A DNA stretch of 31,404 nucleotides, from contig JBHLSH010000046.1 of the NCBI GenBank assembly GCA_048881705.1, positions 1 to 31,404 of the forward strand. The letters run 5' to 3'. Source of the DNA: Candidatus Heimdallarchaeota archaeon. Its GTDB lineage: Archaea; Asgardarchaeota; Heimdallarchaeia; Hodarchaeales; Hodarchaeaceae. Under the pieces are notes generated by a model. That model was not told the origin of the DNA, did not search any database, and was given only the letters and a program-made list of their open reading frames with translations. Positions 1-20,103 of the stretch are shown here, one piece after another. A program made the position numbers and the translations under genes. Numbering within the stretch: position 1 is the stretch's first letter; each line of letters starts with the position of its first letter.

Positions 1-1187
1 ACAGATTCAAAGAAATCCGCGTACCCAAGGTCAACTATTCTTACTGCTTGATCTTTCTCAACGTCATAAAAATTGATTAGATGAGATATCTGATTTTCCT
101 TATCTTCATCGATGAAAGTGATTTTGTCTAACTCCTGTTCGACTTGAAAATCGCTTCCGACTTCCTCCGAAACTGACAACCTAGAAGAGGGCACGTCTCC
201 AATTAAAGGTTCGCGATGATCTTCCATAGCTTCTTGAATTTTTCCTGTAACTTGGACTTGGTCAATTCCCTCTGGTTTCACTGCCTTTTTCATTAGATGC
301 TGTAGTCTATTTAGAACTACATCATCTGCACCCTTTGGTTTCTCAAGCTTGGTTGCATCTCTCATCAGATTTTGAAGCTTAGATAATACTTCTGATTTGC
401 CTACCGCCTTATGCCCAGGCAGAGACGCGGGAGATGATTGTCGTATTACTGTGGCATCAAAGGGAGTTAATGGAAGCTCGTCCTGAGGGGTTCCTCCCAA
501 ATGAGCTCGTTCAACAGCTTCAACTTCTTTCCTAATAACCATGCTCTCTTTCACATATTCTTCGATCGGCCCAATCTTTTCATGATCAACAAACTCGCTT
601 TCAGCCAGTTCTGTTGCCGAGAGCTCAAAAATACGCCCAAAACTCCGAATTACAGTCTCAGGTTTATAAATAGTTGTTCGAAAGAAGGGTAAATTACCGG
701 CCTTGTATTCCAGTTGAAATTGTTCCTTTAACTGAGAATGTATACTTTCATAATTAGGAAGATTCCGAACTAGATCGTTCTTATGGAGAAAAACGAAGAT
801 GTTCGCTTTGGGTGAAAATTCCTCCAATCGTTCCAAACAACCGCAAAAATACTGGATCGCGCTATTCCGTGAGGTTTTATTCGCTACATCAATAAGAAAA
901 ATAAACGATCTTACAGAACTGAAAACAAATGGGCTGAAATTGTTTAAAAATCGTTTTAAAAAGATTTTTTGACCACCCAGATCAACAATTGTCACGGGAG
1001 TATTTTTAATGTTCATTGTCATGCGTTCATAGTTGATTGTGGCACCTAAACTGTCCACATCTGCCGTAGATTGTTTTAGAAAGAATATTCGTTTGACTGC
1101 AGTCTTGCCAGCCTCACTTAGTCCAGCTAACAAGATCTTGTATCCTAATCGAGCACTGATATCGGCATGAGACACCCAGTCTGACAT
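1..1187 (-). CDS. Rag/Gtr1-like small GTPase with long C-terminal extension; 3' end runs off the window (not in ORF track)
   Basis: Manual translation from ATG at 1187 is open for 395 codons to the window edge: MSDWVSHADISARLGYKILLAGLSEAGKT (G1), ATINYER (G2), DLGGQ (G3), FLHKND (G4), FRTTIY (G5-like). About 210 aa of extension follow, ending ...LINFYDVEKDQAVRIVDLGYADFFES. Confidence 0.9.
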   Translation of the reverse strand, partial: MSDWVSHADISARLGYKILLAGLSEAGKTAVKRIFFLKQSTADVDSLGATINYERMTMNIKNTPVTIVDLGGQKIFLKRFLNNFSPFVFSSVRSFIFLIDVANKTSRNSAIQYFCGCLERLEEFSPKANIFVFLHKNDLVRNLPNYESIHSQLKEQFQLEYKAGNLPFFRTTIYKPETVIRSFGRIFELSATELAESEFVDHEKIGPIEEYVKESMVIRKEVEAVERAHLGGTPQDELPLTPFDATVIRQSSPASLPGHKAVGKSEVLSKLQNLMRDATKLEKPKGADDVVLNRLQHLMKKAVKPEGIDQVQVTGKIQEAMEDHREPLIGDVPSSRLSVSEEVGSDFQVEQELDKITFIDEDKENQISHLINFYDVEKDQAVRIVDLGYADFFES

Positions 1188-1379: not shown

Positions 1380-2321
1380 TTGCTGGATCACTCAAGAAAG
1401 AGGAGATTACCATTGAAAACTGCCCCTCTACCACAAAAAGTTTTATTCATGGGATTAGGCGCATCAGGTAAGAGTAGTATACGGTCCGTTGTTTTTGAGG
1501 GAAAAACTCCGGATGAGGTGATGGACTATCATGCTACGATTAATTATACCCGTTCAACGAAAAGCGTTGTAGATTCGGCCTTTCAAATTTTTGATTGTGG
1601 CGGGCAGGAGAGCTTTATTTCCGTTTTTGTTGGGGAACAGGCGGAATTCATATTCTCCGATGTTCAAATTCTGGTTTGGGTAGTAGATGTAAGTAATTTT
1701 GATCAGGTTTCCACTTCAAAGTTCTATTTTGACCATGCGATGAATAGACTCGGTGAATTTTCCCATGAAGCGATTGCTTTTTGTCTTTTCCATAAAGCAG
1801 ACCTTTTATTGCCTCAGATGCAGGATGAAGTGATTAACACGCTGAAAGAATTCTTTATCCCCCCAAAAGACTGCGAAATAGAGATTAAGTACTATCAAAC
1901 CTCAATTTTCGATAATTCCGTACACCAAGCTGTCGGAGATTTAATTCAAACCCTCGTAATAAAGAATACAAAAGGGAAAGACGTGTCTCAGACGATACAA
2001 GAATTCATTGAAATGAATAAGGAATTGTCAGGAATCACTGTTTACACTGAAGACGGTCTTCCCGTATTCGAAGAAGGCCCGATGGCAGACAGGATTATTA
2101 TTCCTGCCAATCTTTGGCTTTCGAACTACGATCGAATCAGCAACGAATTTCCGTCCAACCAAACCCTGAAAACAACATTAGAAACCAATGAATATATGTT
2201 TGTGTTTCAAAAGATTAAATCTGAACTAATGCTTTCTGGGATCGCTCGGAAGGTCTCACCACTTCAATATATCTTAGTAAAAATGGAGAAACTAGCCGAT
2301 TTGATCAATGACTTGCTTTGA
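1380..2321 (+). CDS. RagA/Gtr1-like GTPase with C-terminal roadblock/longin-like domain
   Basis: KVLFMGLGASGKSSIRSVVF (G1), ATINY, IFDCGGQESF (G3), IFSDVQILVWVVDV, FCLFHKADL (G4) and YQTSIFD (G5) closely parallel eukaryotic RagA motifs. The last ~115 aa have a roadblock-like pattern (LSGITVYTEDGLPVF...YMFVFQKI...LSGIA). The TTG start is uncertain. Confidence 0.9.
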   Translation: MLDHSRKRRLPLKTAPLPQKVLFMGLGASGKSSIRSVVFEGKTPDEVMDYHATINYTRSTKSVVDSAFQIFDCGGQESFISVFVGEQAEFIFSDVQILVWVVDVSNFDQVSTSKFYFDHAMNRLGEFSHEAIAFCLFHKADLLLPQMQDEVINTLKEFFIPPKDCEIEIKYYQTSIFDNSVHQAVGDLIQTLVIKNTKGKDVSQTIQEFIEMNKELSGITVYTEDGLPVFEEGPMADRIIIPANLWLSNYDRISNEFPSNQTLKTTLETNEYMFVFQKIKSELMLSGIARKVSPLQYILVKMEKLADLINDLL

Positions 2322-14982: not shown

Positions 14983-15996
14983 GTGATAAGCGTGTCACAC
15001 TATTTGAAACAATTGAAAACTAGCGCAAGTCGTAAGATTATTCTTTTGGGGCTTTCCCAAGCAGGTAAAACATCAATTCGGGATGTTGTGTTTGGGGGGA
15101 AAAACCCAGAAGAAACACAGAACTACTCAGCTACCTTGAACTACGAGCGACAAATTGAGCAGGTGGCCGATGAACCTGTTACGGTGATGGATCTGGGAGG
15201 CCAAGAGGTTTTTCTTAAACGATTTTTGAGTAGCATGAGCTCTTTTATATTTAGTAACGTTGCTGTGTTGGTTTTTATCTGTGACATCAGTACTCCAGAT
15301 AAATTTCCCGCAAGCTTAAAGGCCTTCGTTGAAGGGGTATCTAGATTAGAAGAAATGTCAGACGTACAGCCCGCAGTGTACATTTTACTCCATAAAACGG
15401 ATCTACTTCCCGATCTAACACAAAGAGCAGAAAGAATGGAGTTCTTGATGGAAATGTTTCAAGACGCTGTAGTTACGAAGAATATTACGTTTCTCCAGAC
15501 CTCAATTTACGATAACTCAATTCATGAAGCATTTAAACGAATTACTGCTGAAGCAAGTGAAATTATTCCAGAAGCAGAGGAGATTGAAGAAGAGGCAGAT
15601 TTAGAAGCGATACAACGCCGCCTTAGGCTACGCCCTATCCAGCAAGTGTTACACACGGTCAAGTTCATGAATCGCTTGGATGAAGTACTCTTAATCTCCT
15701 CGGAAGATCCAGAATTTCTTGTTCAGGGATCGGATGCCCAATTAGAAGAAATTCGTCGACTCCTAGAGATTATGGAAAAAGCTAACGAAAAAACTCTGAA
15801 AGCTGGCTCGAATACGGAGTTAAAACGAGTTGGAAACGCCATGGTATTTAAGTTTAAGGTGAAACCTCACTATTTACTCCTCCTTCTTGGTACTGACCAA
15901 AAATCAATGCTCGAAACTAGATCTTTAGTGGATATTGAAGAAACTGTCAAGCTGGTATCCAATCAACTGGAAGGTATGCTCCAACCTGTGGCATAA
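14983..15996 (+). CDS. Rag/Gtr-like GTPase with C-terminal roadblock/longin-like domain
   Basis: GLSQAGKT (G1), ATLNYER, DLGGQ (G3), LHKTD (G4) and QTSIYD (G5). An acidic linker EAEEIEEEADLE precedes the C-terminal alpha/beta domain. GTG start. Confidence 0.9.
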   Translation: MISVSHYLKQLKTSASRKIILLGLSQAGKTSIRDVVFGGKNPEETQNYSATLNYERQIEQVADEPVTVMDLGGQEVFLKRFLSSMSSFIFSNVAVLVFICDISTPDKFPASLKAFVEGVSRLEEMSDVQPAVYILLHKTDLLPDLTQRAERMEFLMEMFQDAVVTKNITFLQTSIYDNSIHEAFKRITAEASEIIPEAEEIEEEADLEAIQRRLRLRPIQQVLHTVKFMNRLDEVLLISSEDPEFLVQGSDAQLEEIRRLLEIMEKANEKTLKAGSNTELKRVGNAMVFKFKVKPHYLLLLLGTDQKSMLETRSLVDIEETVKLVSNQLEGMLQPVA

Positions 15997-16094: not shown

Positions 16095-17039
16095 ATGTAC
16101 AACGGGGGCATAAAATTGAAAAGAAATTTAATCGCGGTCGCTGGTTTATCTCACTCAGGGAAGGATCTCCTCTTTAACCAATTGATGAAATTAGGAAAAA
16201 CTGAACCCGACCTTGGAATAAGAGAGAATGTTTACTACTATGATCTAATAACAACTTCTGCTAGAAAGAGGGATGAAGACTCATATGTTAACGCCATTCT
16301 TCCCACGCTAGAGCATAAAGTTTTAATGAAAACAGGTGCACTAATTTACATTCATGACATAACCTACCAGAGGCTGGATGACACAGCCGCGGATTTTCAA
16401 GAGATAACAAAAAATATCACAGATAAAGGAAACCATGATTTTCAGGTACTGTTAATCCTAAACCGAGGCCATCTTATAACAAATGAAGCAGAACGGCAGA
16501 AACTTAAAGATGCCCTATTACGTCAGTTACACAATATTTATCCGAAAGAAATCTCAACGTACATCGTTAGTCTTAAGGGAACTGATGAACAGCGGATAAC
16601 GAATCTCGTTTTTACCCAGATCATCCGAAAGACCAATGAAAAGAAAGGCTTGATTGACATCGAAGACAAGATCAAACTTGATGATAAAAAGTTCCGTAAG
16701 ATAATTAACGAGAAAATGGAAGGCCTTGGATTTTCTGGTGCCTACATATTGTCACGTAACAATTACAAGCTCTTGGCTGCCGCAGGAAAAACGCCTTCTT
16801 GGGAAGAAAATGTAGGCCCTCAAATAGTTCGTTTCCTTGCGGCCAATGAAGTGTTCGAATTTCCTCCGGAGCCAAAAATTAACATCCAACGAATGGAAGA
16901 TTTCTTAAATATTTCGATCATACTTCCACCTGACCGAATTCTGGTGCTTATTGGTAAACTGTCTCGGTTTAAACTAGGTACAATGTCCTATCCAGAAGCA
17001 GAAAAGGTATGTATGGAATTCGTGGAAGCGCTTCAATGA
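16095..17039 (+). CDS. Degenerate small-GTPase-fold protein with C-terminal roadblock-like domain
   Basis: IAVAGLSHSGKD (G1 with D at the S/T position). No DxxG motif. LILNRGH stands at the G4 position, and ALIYIHD matches the beta-4 strand. The C-terminal GFSGAYILSR..KLLAAAG...RILVLIG segment is roadblock-like. The start may be the TTG at 16116. Confidence 0.75.
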   Translation: MYNGGIKLKRNLIAVAGLSHSGKDLLFNQLMKLGKTEPDLGIRENVYYYDLITTSARKRDEDSYVNAILPTLEHKVLMKTGALIYIHDITYQRLDDTAADFQEITKNITDKGNHDFQVLLILNRGHLITNEAERQKLKDALLRQLHNIYPKEISTYIVSLKGTDEQRITNLVFTQIIRKTNEKKGLIDIEDKIKLDDKKFRKIINEKMEGLGFSGAYILSRNNYKLLAAAGKTPSWEENVGPQIVRFLAANEVFEFPPEPKINIQRMEDFLNISIILPPDRILVLIGKLSRFKLGTMSYPEAEKVCMEFVEALQ

Positions 17040-17057: not shown

Positions 17058-17858
17058 ATGATTAAAGGACTAGTAGTCACAACGATGACAGACATGGGGC
17101 CATTTCCTCTTTTGAACTTATCTGAGCTGCCAGAAGACACAACCGTAAAGTTATCAGTAATAGGCATGACGATCCTTTCCATGGGAGCCGGGACAGTTGC
17201 GGAGAAACAACACTATCGTCTTCACGGTTCGATCCCCGTTCCGGACACACCGACCTTGGAAGCTCTTGCCATGTCCTTCACTGTTATCCCTACTGATACA
17301 AAGGATATTCGGATCGACCAACACGGAAGGGAGTCCACTATCTGGCTATTATTTGATTCAAAAATGCGTGACGAAATTTTTCAGCGACATAGCACAATAG
17401 AAGCAACCCTGAAAACAGAGGCAGTAGGAATCCGTGAAGAAAACGTTTTATCAAATCCTACGATTATGAACCGTGTTTTAAGTCGCATTCAGGATGTATC
17501 TCAGAGTACAGAGATTATAGAACCTGTTCCTCATGAAAAAGAACCATTATATCTGCCAGGTAAGGGGGGACTCGAATTTTTTCATGTAAATAATCAGGGA
17601 GAGTTATTAGAACTACCGATTGACGGAAATTTAACCCAATATCCCATCTTGATCATTTGTAACCTCGTAATCAAACGTATAATCTTGTTGAAGATGACTG
17701 AAGATGTCTCTCAACGACAGTTCTTTCTTGCAAGCAAACATGCATCTAACTTAAACTCGTCTCGATTCAAGAATTCAATGGAGATCAGAGATGTTCAAGA
17801 TCCTTTGGAGCGAGAGATGATCCTGGAGAAGCTTGGGGTAATCTTAGAGACTGTCTAG
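17058..17858 (+). CDS. Two-domain protein: putative N-terminal longin/uDENN-like domain plus C-terminal gelsolin-like domain
   Basis: N-terminus IKGLVVTTMTDMGPFP...HGSIPVP...ALAMSF...WLLFD. C-terminus FFHVNNQGELLEL..ILIICNLVIKRIILLK...SQRQFFLASKHASNLN. AGGAG site upstream. The CDS is solid; the domain calls are pattern recognition. Confidence 0.7.
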   Translation: MIKGLVVTTMTDMGPFPLLNLSELPEDTTVKLSVIGMTILSMGAGTVAEKQHYRLHGSIPVPDTPTLEALAMSFTVIPTDTKDIRIDQHGRESTIWLLFDSKMRDEIFQRHSTIEATLKTEAVGIREENVLSNPTIMNRVLSRIQDVSQSTEIIEPVPHEKEPLYLPGKGGLEFFHVNNQGELLELPIDGNLTQYPILIICNLVIKRIILLKMTEDVSQRQFFLASKHASNLNSSRFKNSMEIRDVQDPLEREMILEKLGVILETV

Positions 17859-17893: not shown

Positions 17894-18823
17894 ATGTCTT
17901 ATCTTACAAGGAAAAAGTCTTCCAAAGTCCTTATCTTAGGTTTGGCGGAAAGCGGTAAATCGACCATAATTCGGGTTGTGACTGAAGGCAAAATTCCATC
18001 CAAAGATGAACCTTATCACGCGACCATAGATTATGAAAGAAAACAAAAGACTATTGCTGGTACAGAACTTACAATATTTGATTTAGGGGGCCAAACTGCG
18101 TTCCTGGATCGATTCACAGGTGAGCTTTCCGAATTTATCTTTAGCGGAGTTAAGGCTCTCGTATTCGTGGTTGACTCCATCAAAATTCCAGATATTTCCA
18201 GAGCTAAATATTATTTGGATTTATCTATAAAGAAACTTTCTGAATATAGTCCCTCTGCATCCGTCTTTCTTTTCCAACATAAATCAGATCTAGTCCCAAA
18301 GCATCTGAAAGGGGAAGTTCGGAAAACAATATCTGATTATCTTTCTGCAGGGATAAAACAATCAGTACGTTATTACGAAACTTCTGTTTTTTCAGACACA
18401 ATTTTTCGCGCAATGGGTGATGTTTACTCAGAGGCTTCGGGCGCCCGCAAAACGTTAAGACCATTATTAGAGACTTTTATTCATCACAACGATGCAGACA
18501 TGGCCCAGATATTTACCAAGGAAGGGGCACCCCTGACACGGGTAGAAAATGTATCTCGGTTTGATCACATATCCCTTTCGGAAGTAAAACAGTTTTTCGA
18601 TGCGGTAGCCCAGCGCCTATCTAATTCTGAAACCCAAAGTTCCAATTCCATCTTATTAGAAGCGGATCGCCATGTTTTCGTCATTCGATTTTTAGAGAAT
18701 TCCTTGGCCCTGTTTTTTGGATTTCCGAAAGAGAGATTGAAAGAGAAAAACGAGCCTATCGCATCCCTATACAATAAAGTATTGGCGTTTTCATCGCAGT
18801 TAAAGTCGATTACAGAGGGTTGA
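17894..18823 (+). CDS. Rag/Gtr-like GTPase with C-terminal roadblock/longin-like domain
   Basis: GLAESGKS (G1), ATIDYER, IFDLGGQ (G3), QHKSD (G4) and YETSVF (G5). C-terminal ADMAQIFTKEGAPL...HVFVIRF..ALFFGF. Confidence 0.9.
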   Translation: MSYLTRKKSSKVLILGLAESGKSTIIRVVTEGKIPSKDEPYHATIDYERKQKTIAGTELTIFDLGGQTAFLDRFTGELSEFIFSGVKALVFVVDSIKIPDISRAKYYLDLSIKKLSEYSPSASVFLFQHKSDLVPKHLKGEVRKTISDYLSAGIKQSVRYYETSVFSDTIFRAMGDVYSEASGARKTLRPLLETFIHHNDADMAQIFTKEGAPLTRVENVSRFDHISLSEVKQFFDAVAQRLSNSETQSSNSILLEADRHVFVIRFLENSLALFFGFPKERLKEKNEPIASLYNKVLAFSSQLKSITEG

Positions 18824-18885: not shown

Positions 18886-20103
18886 ATGACAGATTCTCTC
18901 TTTTGGAATAAGACTATGTTTAACAATTCAATGAATCATTGGATATTCTCACAAATCGATGGCCTGGTTTCTCAGTATTTTACCGTAACCTCAGTGAGTT
19001 ATAGAGCTCTAGGTCCGCAAAACCAGCCTTTTCCAGTCCAAGCTATACCCTCATACGAAGTCCTTCGCAGAAGTGACCTATCCGCAAACATGGAAGCTGT
19101 CAGCTCACAACTTCAGAAAATAGGCTACGTTCCCATCCTACGTTCTCATCCAACCGAGAAATCCCGTGGAGTTCTCTATATTTTTCCTCACTCTGATAGC
19201 CGGGTTACGAAGGGACAAAATTGGAGGACTCCTTTAATCCTGTTCGTTTTGACAATTTTATCAGTGTTTTTTGTGGGTCTAATGCTCTGGAACTTTCTCC
19301 GTCAGGTTAACCCCAATTCAGGGCCCATCGAAACTGGCTTATTCTACACGGTAGGATTAATCGGCATTGTGGGAATCCATGAACTAGGACATATGGTTGC
19401 ATCTCGTCTGCACGGAATTAAGGCTAGCTTCCCCTACTTTCTCCCTATCCCATTTGGCTACGGGACTTTCGGAGCTTTCATTACCCAAAAAACTCCGACA
19501 AAATCTCGTAATGATTTGTTTGATGTGGGTTTAGCGGGGCCACTTTTTGGTTTCGTACCCGCGCTAATCTTCTCAATATTAGGTTTGCTTCTATCAACTG
19601 TGGTTCCATTAACAGAGGTACCAATTCAGCTTCTGGAGGATCCACTAGCAGTTGATTTCAGGCTATTTAGCGATTCTCGCTTTCGAATTCTCTTATTTGA
19701 ATTATTGGCCTTTTTAATTCTTCCAGTTTCGCAAAACGGAGTAGAAATCTTTCTGAACCCCTTAGCGATTGCAGGATATATAGGTTTTCTTCTAACTGGC
19801 CTGAATCTTATCCCAATCGGGCAGTTGGATGGAGGCCATGTCGCACGAGCCCTTTTTGATGAACGTCACCATAAAACCTTGACATATATATCTGCAGGAT
19901 TTATGGTCATACTGGGATTCTGGTTTTTTGCTCTCCTTATTATCATGTTTTATTCACAAACGGGGCATGCTGGTCCACTTGATGATGTTTCTAAGGTTAG
20001 TTTAGGCCGCAAAGTTATAGCGATTCTATCGATAGGTTTAGCTATCCTTTGTCTACCTATTCCTTCAGAGCTTTTTCAGATAGTGTTCCCCTTCTTAGGT
20101 TAG
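18886..20103 (+). CDS. Site-2 protease (peptidase M50) intramembrane zinc metalloprotease
   Basis: IHELGH (HExxH), GTFGAFI, DVGLAGPLFG and NLIPIGQLDGGH, with multiple TM segments and a soluble N-terminal domain. Confidence 0.95.
   Translation: MTDSLFWNKTMFNNSMNHWIFSQIDGLVSQYFTVTSVSYRALGPQNQPFPVQAIPSYEVLRRSDLSANMEAVSSQLQKIGYVPILRSHPTEKSRGVLYIFPHSDSRVTKGQNWRTPLILFVLTILSVFFVGLMLWNFLRQVNPNSGPIETGLFYTVGLIGIVGIHELGHMVASRLHGIKASFPYFLPIPFGYGTFGAFITQKTPTKSRNDLFDVGLAGPLFGFVPALIFSILGLLLSTVVPLTEVPIQLLEDPLAVDFRLFSDSRFRILLFELLAFLILPVSQNGVEIFLNPLAIAGYIGFLLTGLNLIPIGQLDGGHVARALFDERHHKTLTYISAGFMVILGFWFFALLIIMFYSQTGHAGPLDDVSKVSLGRKVIAILSIGLAILCLPIPSELFQIVFPFLG

Follow-up and report, generated by a model that had tools for sequence, protein, structure and literature searches.

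A single protein-coding gene was analyzed in a stretch of 31,404 nucleotides from Candidatus Heimdallarchaeota archaeon (Hodarchaeales/Hodarchaeaceae; assembly GCA_048881705.1, contig JBHLSH010000046.1, positions 1-31,404 of the forward strand; hereafter the window). The gene (17058-17858, forward strand, stop codon included) encodes a protein of 266 amino acids, here named LonGel, in which a longin domain is followed by a gelsolin-fold domain, and it lies among genes of Rag-like GTPases. The analyses indicated that LonGel is most likely a regulator of these neighbors and probably a GTPase-activating protein (GAP); a probability of roughly 0.55 is given to the reading that it is a dedicated regulator of the adjacent Rag-like GTPases which acts as a GAP through arginine R85. 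The tie to the Rag-like GTPases is strongly supported by a conserved gene order and by natural gene fusions, while a GP motif and an essentially invariant arginine favor, on the basis of fold and motif, a GAP over a guanine nucleotide exchange factor (GEF) or a scaffold.

The gene was present as a single ATG-to-stop open reading frame within a co-directional run of genes, with intergenic gaps of 98, 18, 35, and 62 nt, and the base composition of the window was even throughout. A word-indexed search retrieved 69 homologues with 48-96% identity, none of them named, from assemblies labeled as Heimdall-, Hod- or other Asgard archaea. Alignment of 36 LonGel sequences (A1) showed a mean column identity of 68% and a start position common to all of them; judged from these comparisons, the spread of homologues, the shared start and the conservation mark LonGel as a real gene under selection. 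Identity to the LonGel of the window was, respectively, 69, 22, and 50% in the N-terminal domain, the linker and the C-terminal domain of A1. When 1.84 billion representatives were searched exhaustively by profile, many divergent proteins of 240-290 amino acids came to light that have the LonGel N-terminal domain and tails of like pattern; 65 divergent full-length relatives were combined in a further alignment and profile (A3). Searches of the LonGel protein against Pfam and NCBIfam gave zero matches, and phmmer and the A1 profile returned only noise from PDB sequences.

The genes that flank LonGel are true Rag/Gtr relatives. RagL1 (14983-15996, forward strand), a Rag/Gtr-type GTPase with a C-terminal extension, matched Pfam Gtr1_RagA with an E-value of 2.3e-34 and gave Gtr1 (1e-18) and RagA as its best PDB sequence matches, followed by Gtr2/RagC; its canonical G motifs GLSQAGKT, DLGGQ, and HKTD are conserved. 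RagL3 (17894-18823, forward strand; Gtr1_RagA, 2.1e-31) begins 35 nt downstream of LonGel and matched RagA (4.5e-15)/Gtr1 best, then Gtr2/RagC. Both proteins keep the motifs GxxxxGKT/S, DLGGQ, and HKxD. Between RagL1 and LonGel lies RagL2 (16095-17039, forward strand), whose AlphaFold2 (AF2) model comprises a P-loop domain and a roadblock domain, and whose architecture was identified as that of a Rag protein by structure comparison with VIA (LokiRagM, Z 14.5; RagD G domain, Z 14.2; RagC roadblock domain, Z 12.3). The motifs of RagL2 are non-canonical (GLSHSGKD, HDI.YQ, and NRGH) and invariant in 21 orthologues, which suggests that it is probably a pseudo-GTPase or a protein of altered nucleotide chemistry.

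Genomic context analyses revealed that the order RagL1-RagL2-LonGel-RagL3 was kept in all 20 loci obtained from distinct species-representative genomes. Leaving out one near-identical relative, and with two of the 20 loci ending at a contig edge before or inside RagL1, identities over these loci were about 75-80% for RagL1, 56-67% for LonGel, 74-80% for RagL3, and 44-50% for RagL2, which is conserved least in the cluster. Among 83 genomes of the class, 20 of the 22 that belong to one genus encode full-length LonGel, and the remaining two are 83 and 88% complete; other families of the class encode proteins of 256-270 amino acids with the same N-terminal domain and a weakly detected C-terminal domain (E about 1e-4). 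A divergent gene of the LonGel kind is found in two other Heimdallarchaeia families directly downstream of two genes for Arf/Rag-like GTPases of 320-336 amino acids (Pfam Arf, 1e-44 to 1e-17, with a weak Gtr1_RagA match), and in one of these families a Ras-like gene of 175 amino acids then follows. These loci (L079:3800-7433, L080, L083:5704-8488, and L084) suggest an older module of two GTPases and a LonGel-like protein.

The link to Rag-like GTPases was also found within single polypeptides. The protein P0075 (597 amino acids; NCBI MFX1533204.1) combines LonGel and a Gtr1_RagA GTPase in one chain. In P0108/P0183 (548/551 amino acids), seen under two NCBI accessions as well as in JGI and on two contigs of up to 92 kb, a longin of a different type, the gelsolin-type domain known from LonGel and a Gtr1_RagA GTPase are joined. 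The latter arrangement belongs to a paralogue family with a gelsolin-type C-terminal domain as in LonGel and with the Rag GTPase fusion in one lineage. Other members (P0102, P0109, P0112, P0113, P0157, P0164, P0166, and P0141) have 230-300 amino acids and are labeled Hodarchaeales. The longin of this family lacks the GP motif, shows a weak match to Fuz_longin_1 and carries the motif LGGLSSFTTEE. Among 400 Asgard species genomes, the family itself was not found, so that its hosts lie outside that set, and no match to its C-terminal domain lay beyond the genus. Two metagenome scans that used P0112 and P0070 likewise gave no relatives.

The AF2 model of LonGel, built on A1, had a mean predicted local distance difference test score (pLDDT) of 82.7 and two domains. 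Residues 2-149 follow the longin order (strand, strand, helix, three strands, helices), and residues 172-265 form four strands and a long helix followed by a further strand and helix. The domains are joined by a Pro/Glu-rich linker of variable length (amino acids 153-168; 17514-17561, forward strand), with pLDDT below 50 at residues 156-168. An exhaustive VIA comparison with 48,161 PDB representatives gave matches that separated cleanly by domain, and Foldseek and a second look at the top 1000 VIA chains concurred with both assignments. An initial annotation, made by eye from the sequence, had proposed two domains with a Pro/Glu-rich linker, the first longin/uDENN-like and the second gelsolin-like, and had noted that the gelsolin aromatic motif is diverged. 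The model bears out this architecture, Foldseek and VIA refine the first assignment to a longin of the FLCN/NPRL2/SMCR8 kind, VIA and sequence profiles place the second nearest to the single-domain Asgard ProGel, and the remark on the aromatic motif was correct. The motifs quoted there, GP.P at residues 14-17, G.IP.P at 57-62, and a C-terminal strand-strand-helix pattern ending in LN, are present and conserved in A1.

As judged from the model, the N-terminal domain (amino acids 1-152; 17058-17513, forward strand) belongs to the longins of FLCN/NPRL2/SMCR8 type. Its best structural match was the longin domain of a Loki Roadblock-Longin protein (8yqg; VIA Z 13.1, 140 aligned residues, root-mean-square deviation 3.4; Foldseek E 4e-5). 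The next matches, with alignments spanning 120-138 residues each, were C9orf72-SMCR8 (7o2w_A; Z 11.5), Lst4 (Z 11.2-12.1), the FLCN chains 6ulg_L and 6nzd_H (Z 10.3-10.8), and NPRL chains including 8fw5_C (Z 9.8-9.9), while the longins of TRAPP, adaptor sigma/mu and SNARE proteins reached Z 7-8.6. Structural neighbors in the Atlas, taken as leads only, comprised a Heimdall cluster with Pfam Folliculin in 23% of its members and eukaryotic C9orf72 and NPR2 clusters.

Conservation in this domain was counted over 64 divergent representatives, each from a separate 50%-identity cluster. One conserved site is the GP motif G14-P15 (17097-17102, forward strand), which opens strand 2 (residues 14-20) and is near-invariant in A1; G14 and P15 were each found in 63 of the 64 representatives, and G57 in all of them. 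Another is the motif D83-x-R85...G90-R91 (17304-17330, forward strand), with D83 in 64/64, R85 in 62/64, G90 in 61/64, and R91 in 55/64, which the AF2 model places in a loop between strand 4 (residues 64-77) and strand 5 (residues 91-100). The arginine fingers of the eukaryotic longin GAPs are R164 in FLCN, R78 in NPRL2, and R147 in SMCR8, and R85 is the candidate for this part in LonGel, with a putative catalytic role. According to a published analysis (PMC12290439), the GP motif is a specific mark of the longins with GAP activity (SMCR8, C9orf72, FLCN, and NPRL2), is absent from non-GAP longins, and in Heimdallarchaeial longins accompanies an arginine finger. G14-P15 occupies the position of the published motif at the junction of loop and strand 2. 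In addition, the alignment of the LonGel model with FLCN starts at residue 2, and the loop D12-P17 therefore falls where, in the active complex, RagC is contacted by loop 10-16 of FLCN (PMC9473554).

On this basis, the longin domain would dock on RagL1 and/or RagL3 at the face that holds the nucleotide pocket, with the D12-P17 loop placed where the FLCN 10-16 loop touches RagC, and R85 could serve as arginine finger, which would make LonGel a GAP. LonGel may act as a homodimer, as in the dimer of the Loki longin crystal. The gelsolin-fold domain, held on the flexible linker, would be an adaptor that engages its partner through a conserved L-N..R-F-K motif at the end of its long helix, the candidate partners being actin, a further protein or, as in Sec23, the GTPase itself.

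Several results weigh against this reading. The Pfam families Folliculin (PF11704), NPR2 (PF06218), NPR3, and C9orf72-like (PF15019) did not match LonGel at E-values up to 1, and neither these families nor Gelsolin matched the 65 divergent relatives at E-values up to 0.1. Since a profile of the N-terminal domain searched against PDB sequences likewise matched no solved longin, the connection to GAP longins rests on fold and motifs. The choice of R85 as candidate finger follows from its conservation and its placement in the loop, and we infer its proximity to the GP motif. The eukaryotic longin GAPs are heterodimers with a non-catalytic second longin and have a DENN domain or a C-terminal domain (CTD), and the cluster provides neither; no second longin gene was found in it. 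Several divergent LonGel-like paralogues are located in unrelated contexts, not beside GTPases. Finally, platforms built of longin and roadblock domains are mostly GEFs or scaffolds, not GAPs (PMC10933270).

This last point leads to a different account, in which LonGel is a non-catalytic platform, a scaffold or a partner resembling a GEF or a guanine nucleotide dissociation inhibitor, that, like the longin/roadblock platforms Ragulator, MglB, Mon1-Ccz1 or TRAPP, holds or localizes a Rag-like dimer without stimulating hydrolysis. The position of LonGel outside the FLCN, NPR2, and C9orf72 Pfam families is consistent with it, and the non-canonical G motifs of RagL2 suggest structural over enzymatic roles in the module. 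The account is nevertheless doubtful, for the GP motif that is reported as absent from non-GAP longins (PMC12290439) is present in nearly every member, the arginine on the adjacent loop is essentially invariant, and the closest eukaryotic structures are longins of GAP complexes (Z 10-12), not those of TRAPP or adaptor sigma/mu (Z 7-8.6).

The gelsolin-fold domain (amino acids 169-266; 17562-17855, forward strand) is ProGel-like and lacks the DWG motif and the Ca2+ sites. In the VIA comparison, residues 169-264 matched the Thorarchaeota ProGel 7c2f with Z 12.1 and a root-mean-square deviation of 2.2 over 87 of 88 residues; domains of gelsolin, adseverin, villin and fragmin followed at Z of about 10, with more than 40 gelsolin-family entries, and the gelsolin-like domain of Sec23A (2nup_A, residues 613-723) at Z 8.3 over 90 residues. 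Pfam Gelsolin (PF00626) did not match LonGel. When a C-domain profile of the narrow family was compared by hhalign with 31 Pfam-positive Asgard gelsolin domains, the probability was 3.5%, and it rose to 85.5% (P 5.7e-6; alignment of 72-79 columns) with a broad profile to which the divergent relatives had been added, while reversed and 30 column-shuffled controls gave at most 0.4%. Independently, the A3 profile searched with HMMER against PDB sequences had ProGel as its top match (7c2f_B, chain residues 4-92, E 3e-4), with the runners-up at E 0.08 or worse. From the rise through intermediates and the independent match to ProGel, we conclude that the domain belongs to the gelsolin/ProGel superfamily as a true, divergent member. 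The possibility that it is a second longin or roadblock domain was considered and rejected: all structural matches were to the gelsolin family or Sec23, and hhalign of the C-terminal against the N-terminal domain gave 1.9%.

The correspondence of residues with gelsolin was read in the register of the hhalign and A3/ProGel alignments. The positions compared are, in human gelsolin G1, residues of the Ca2+ sites and an apolar residue (Ile103) that inserts into the actin cleft, together with the DWG motif, which has been named for Asgard gelsolins (PMC7444086). In LonGel, the Asp of DWG is replaced by N202, which is invariant in the family, the Trp by Leu and the Gly by Lys; the Glu of the type-2 Ca2+ site is Q221 (Leu in most orthologues), the Asp of the type-1 site is N233 (invariant), and the equivalent of Ile103 is K227 (Arg or Thr in orthologues). 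The Asp of DWG is often retained in the tails of the more divergent relatives. The best-kept surface motif of the domain is the L-N..R-F-K motif itself (L232-N233...R236-F237-K238), and the start of the last helix, with D248-P249-x-E-R, is also well kept.

These features bear on the function suggested in the initial annotation, namely that one polypeptide couples GTPase state to actin remodeling. In this account the longin would read or set the state of a Rag-like GTPase, and the gelsolin domain would bind actin as ProGel does and relay that state to the cytoskeleton. Gene order and natural fusions strongly support the link to the flanking GTPases, while the actin half, with the homology of the C-terminal domain as its one basis, is possible and did not gain further ground. 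The Thor ProGel to which the domain is homologous was crystallized on actin, and the relation extends to the Pfam-positive Asgard gelsolins. In gelsolin G1, the long helix faces actin with its end, as does the loop after it, and L232-N233...R236-F237-K238 of LonGel aligns with this part. Furthermore, ProGel likewise has no Ca2+ sites and still decorates filaments in cells, so that the losses in LonGel would weaken a possible actin role without excluding it; its affinity for rabbit actin is, on the other side, very weak (dissociation constant about 337 uM; PMC7444086). The replacement of DWG, of the Ca2+-site residues and of the actin-inserting residue also speaks against the coupling, as does the whole-genome search with Pfam Gelsolin, which recovered two canonical gelsolin genes elsewhere and missed the C-terminal domain of LonGel. 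No actin-related gene was present in the neighborhoods examined. On balance, a coupler of GTPases to actin is regarded as rather unlikely.

The same domain could instead contact the GTPase. The gelsolin-like domain of Sec23 contacts Sar1 and supplies the key catalytic residue (PMC11914678), a precedent for this fold in the service of a GTPase; by analogy, the LonGel C-terminal domain would position or supply catalytic residues, and LonGel would be a two-pronged GAP. Besides the structural match to Sec23A, the persistence of the basic residues K238, R244, R252, and K258 across paralogues is in agreement with such a contact, as is the paralogue family, in which the type of longin is swapped while the C-terminal domain and the fusion to a Rag GTPase persist. 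However, the Sec23 match (Z 8.3) is one of fold and weaker than those to actin-binding gelsolins (Z 10-12), and R244 also occurs in ProGel and may be structural. The long flexible linker, moreover, suggests an independent adaptor and not a fixed second catalytic lobe. A two-pronged mechanism is therefore held to be improbable, slightly more so than the coupling to actin. The regulation of Rag-like GTPases through the longin domain remains the preferred reading.

The comparison with known systems places LonGel closest to FLCN (with FNIP), NPRL2 (in GATOR1), and SMCR8 (with C9orf72), which share with it the longin fold with the same strand order, a GP motif opening strand 2 and a conserved arginine, in LonGel the candidate finger, on a loop close by. 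Rag GTPases are the targets of FLCN and NPRL2, and the neighbors and fusion partners of LonGel are of the Rag/Gtr family. LonGel differs from these proteins in matching none of their Pfam families, in having only 266 amino acids and in that its GAP role is a prediction. Where FLCN and SMCR8 carry a DENN domain and NPRL2 a TINI/CTD, LonGel has a gelsolin-fold domain, and the second longin subunit of their complexes has no counterpart in its cluster. The Heimdallarchaeial 'Folliculin/SMCR8-type' longins (Traffic 2025, PMC12290439) agree with LonGel in lineage, in the GP motif and arginine, and in the proposed GAP role. That study leaves undecided whether their partner is ArfR or Rag/Gtr, whereas the LonGel operon and the fusions point to the Rag/Gtr type; a gelsolin domain, as LonGel carries it, is nowhere mentioned in its text (0 occurrences).

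Regarding the C-terminal domain, the Thor ProGel (7c2f) resembles that of LonGel in being a single gelsolin/cofilin core of about 90 amino acids without Ca2+ sites, and ProGel and the Asgard mini-gelsolins are related to it by sequence profile and by fold. ProGel and 2DGel keep the DWG motif, while the LonGel domain has lost it and escapes Pfam Gelsolin; in 1DGelX the gelsolin domain comes first and is followed by a coiled-coil domain X, while in LonGel it is C-terminal to the longin. Sec23/Sec24 (COPII) also carry a gelsolin-fold domain within a regulator of an Arf/Rag-superfamily GTPase. Sec23 differs from LonGel in its four other domains, in the lack of a longin and in the weaker structural match, and the likeness does not imply equivalence of the catalytic Arg. 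The Sec23-like proteins of Asgard archaea are devoid of the gelsolin-like domain, and many other Asgard proteins contain gelsolin domains (PMC11914678).

Asgard FLCN-like (PMC12290439) and NPRL2-like longins and Asgard gelsolins (PMC7444086) are thus already known, while neither a protein combining a longin with a gelsolin domain nor the Rag operon of LonGel was found described in the literature searched, and the domain combination is apparently new to it. Genes of Asgard GTPases rarely share operons with longin or roadblock genes (PMC10933270; Tran et al.), and the Rag-LonGel cluster is an exception to this separation.

Further observations concern the surroundings of the cluster and its relatives. 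A gene for a membrane protease of the M50 (site-2 protease) family (18886-20103, forward strand) follows RagL3 after 62 nt and is syntenic wherever related contigs reach that far, but at distances of 0.7-2.4 kb, so that its tie to the module is loose. The window also contains a head-to-head pair of Gtr1/RagA-family genes (3-1187, reverse strand, and 1380-2318, forward strand; Pfam 7e-30 and 1.4e-36, respectively), which gives five genes of Rag architecture in the 31 kb. The LonGel orthologue at L019:3455-4246 (Ca. Hodarchaeum mangrovi FT_5_011; also G119:C98) has one in-frame TAA after residue 92, which is either a sequencing error or the sign of a recent pseudogene. A complete Asgard Rag-LonGel cluster is located on a 55-kb contig labeled 'Bacteroides sp. 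SM23_62_1' (L004; LJUQ01000002.1), which is probably mis-binned, and several loci labeled Thor-, Hermod- or Prometh-archaeota seemingly belong to one genus. Further longin paralogues with the GP motif were seen in the same genome and genus (G000:C12:37571-38002, G000:C4:63600-64022, L087, and L088), some of 349 amino acids with another C-terminal part, others of 245-254 amino acids and adjoining a gene for an iron-containing alcohol dehydrogenase.

The scarcity of operons that join a GTPase to a longin hampers the pairing of GTPases with their regulators (PMC10933270), and the LonGel cluster, from an archaeon that is a near relative of the eukaryotes, offers a regulator-target pair on which a nutrient switch of eukaryotic style can be tested. 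Its context also bears on the GTPase partners of the GP-motif longins of Heimdallarchaeia, which were left unsettled (PMC12290439). A more far-reaching view, which we regard as speculative and rather improbable, is that LonGel is an archaeal forerunner of the Rag-GAP arm, a proto-FLCN/NPRL2 in one polypeptide acting on a Rag-like dimer, whose gelsolin domain either ties Rag signaling to actin or represents a use of the gelsolin fold on GTPases before Sec23. The partner of the gelsolin domain, actin or GTPase, bears on how signaling, cytoskeleton and coat GAPs became linked. If the GAP prediction is true, the logic of Rag GTPases and longin GAPs in mTORC1 nutrient sensing would be older than the eukaryotes.

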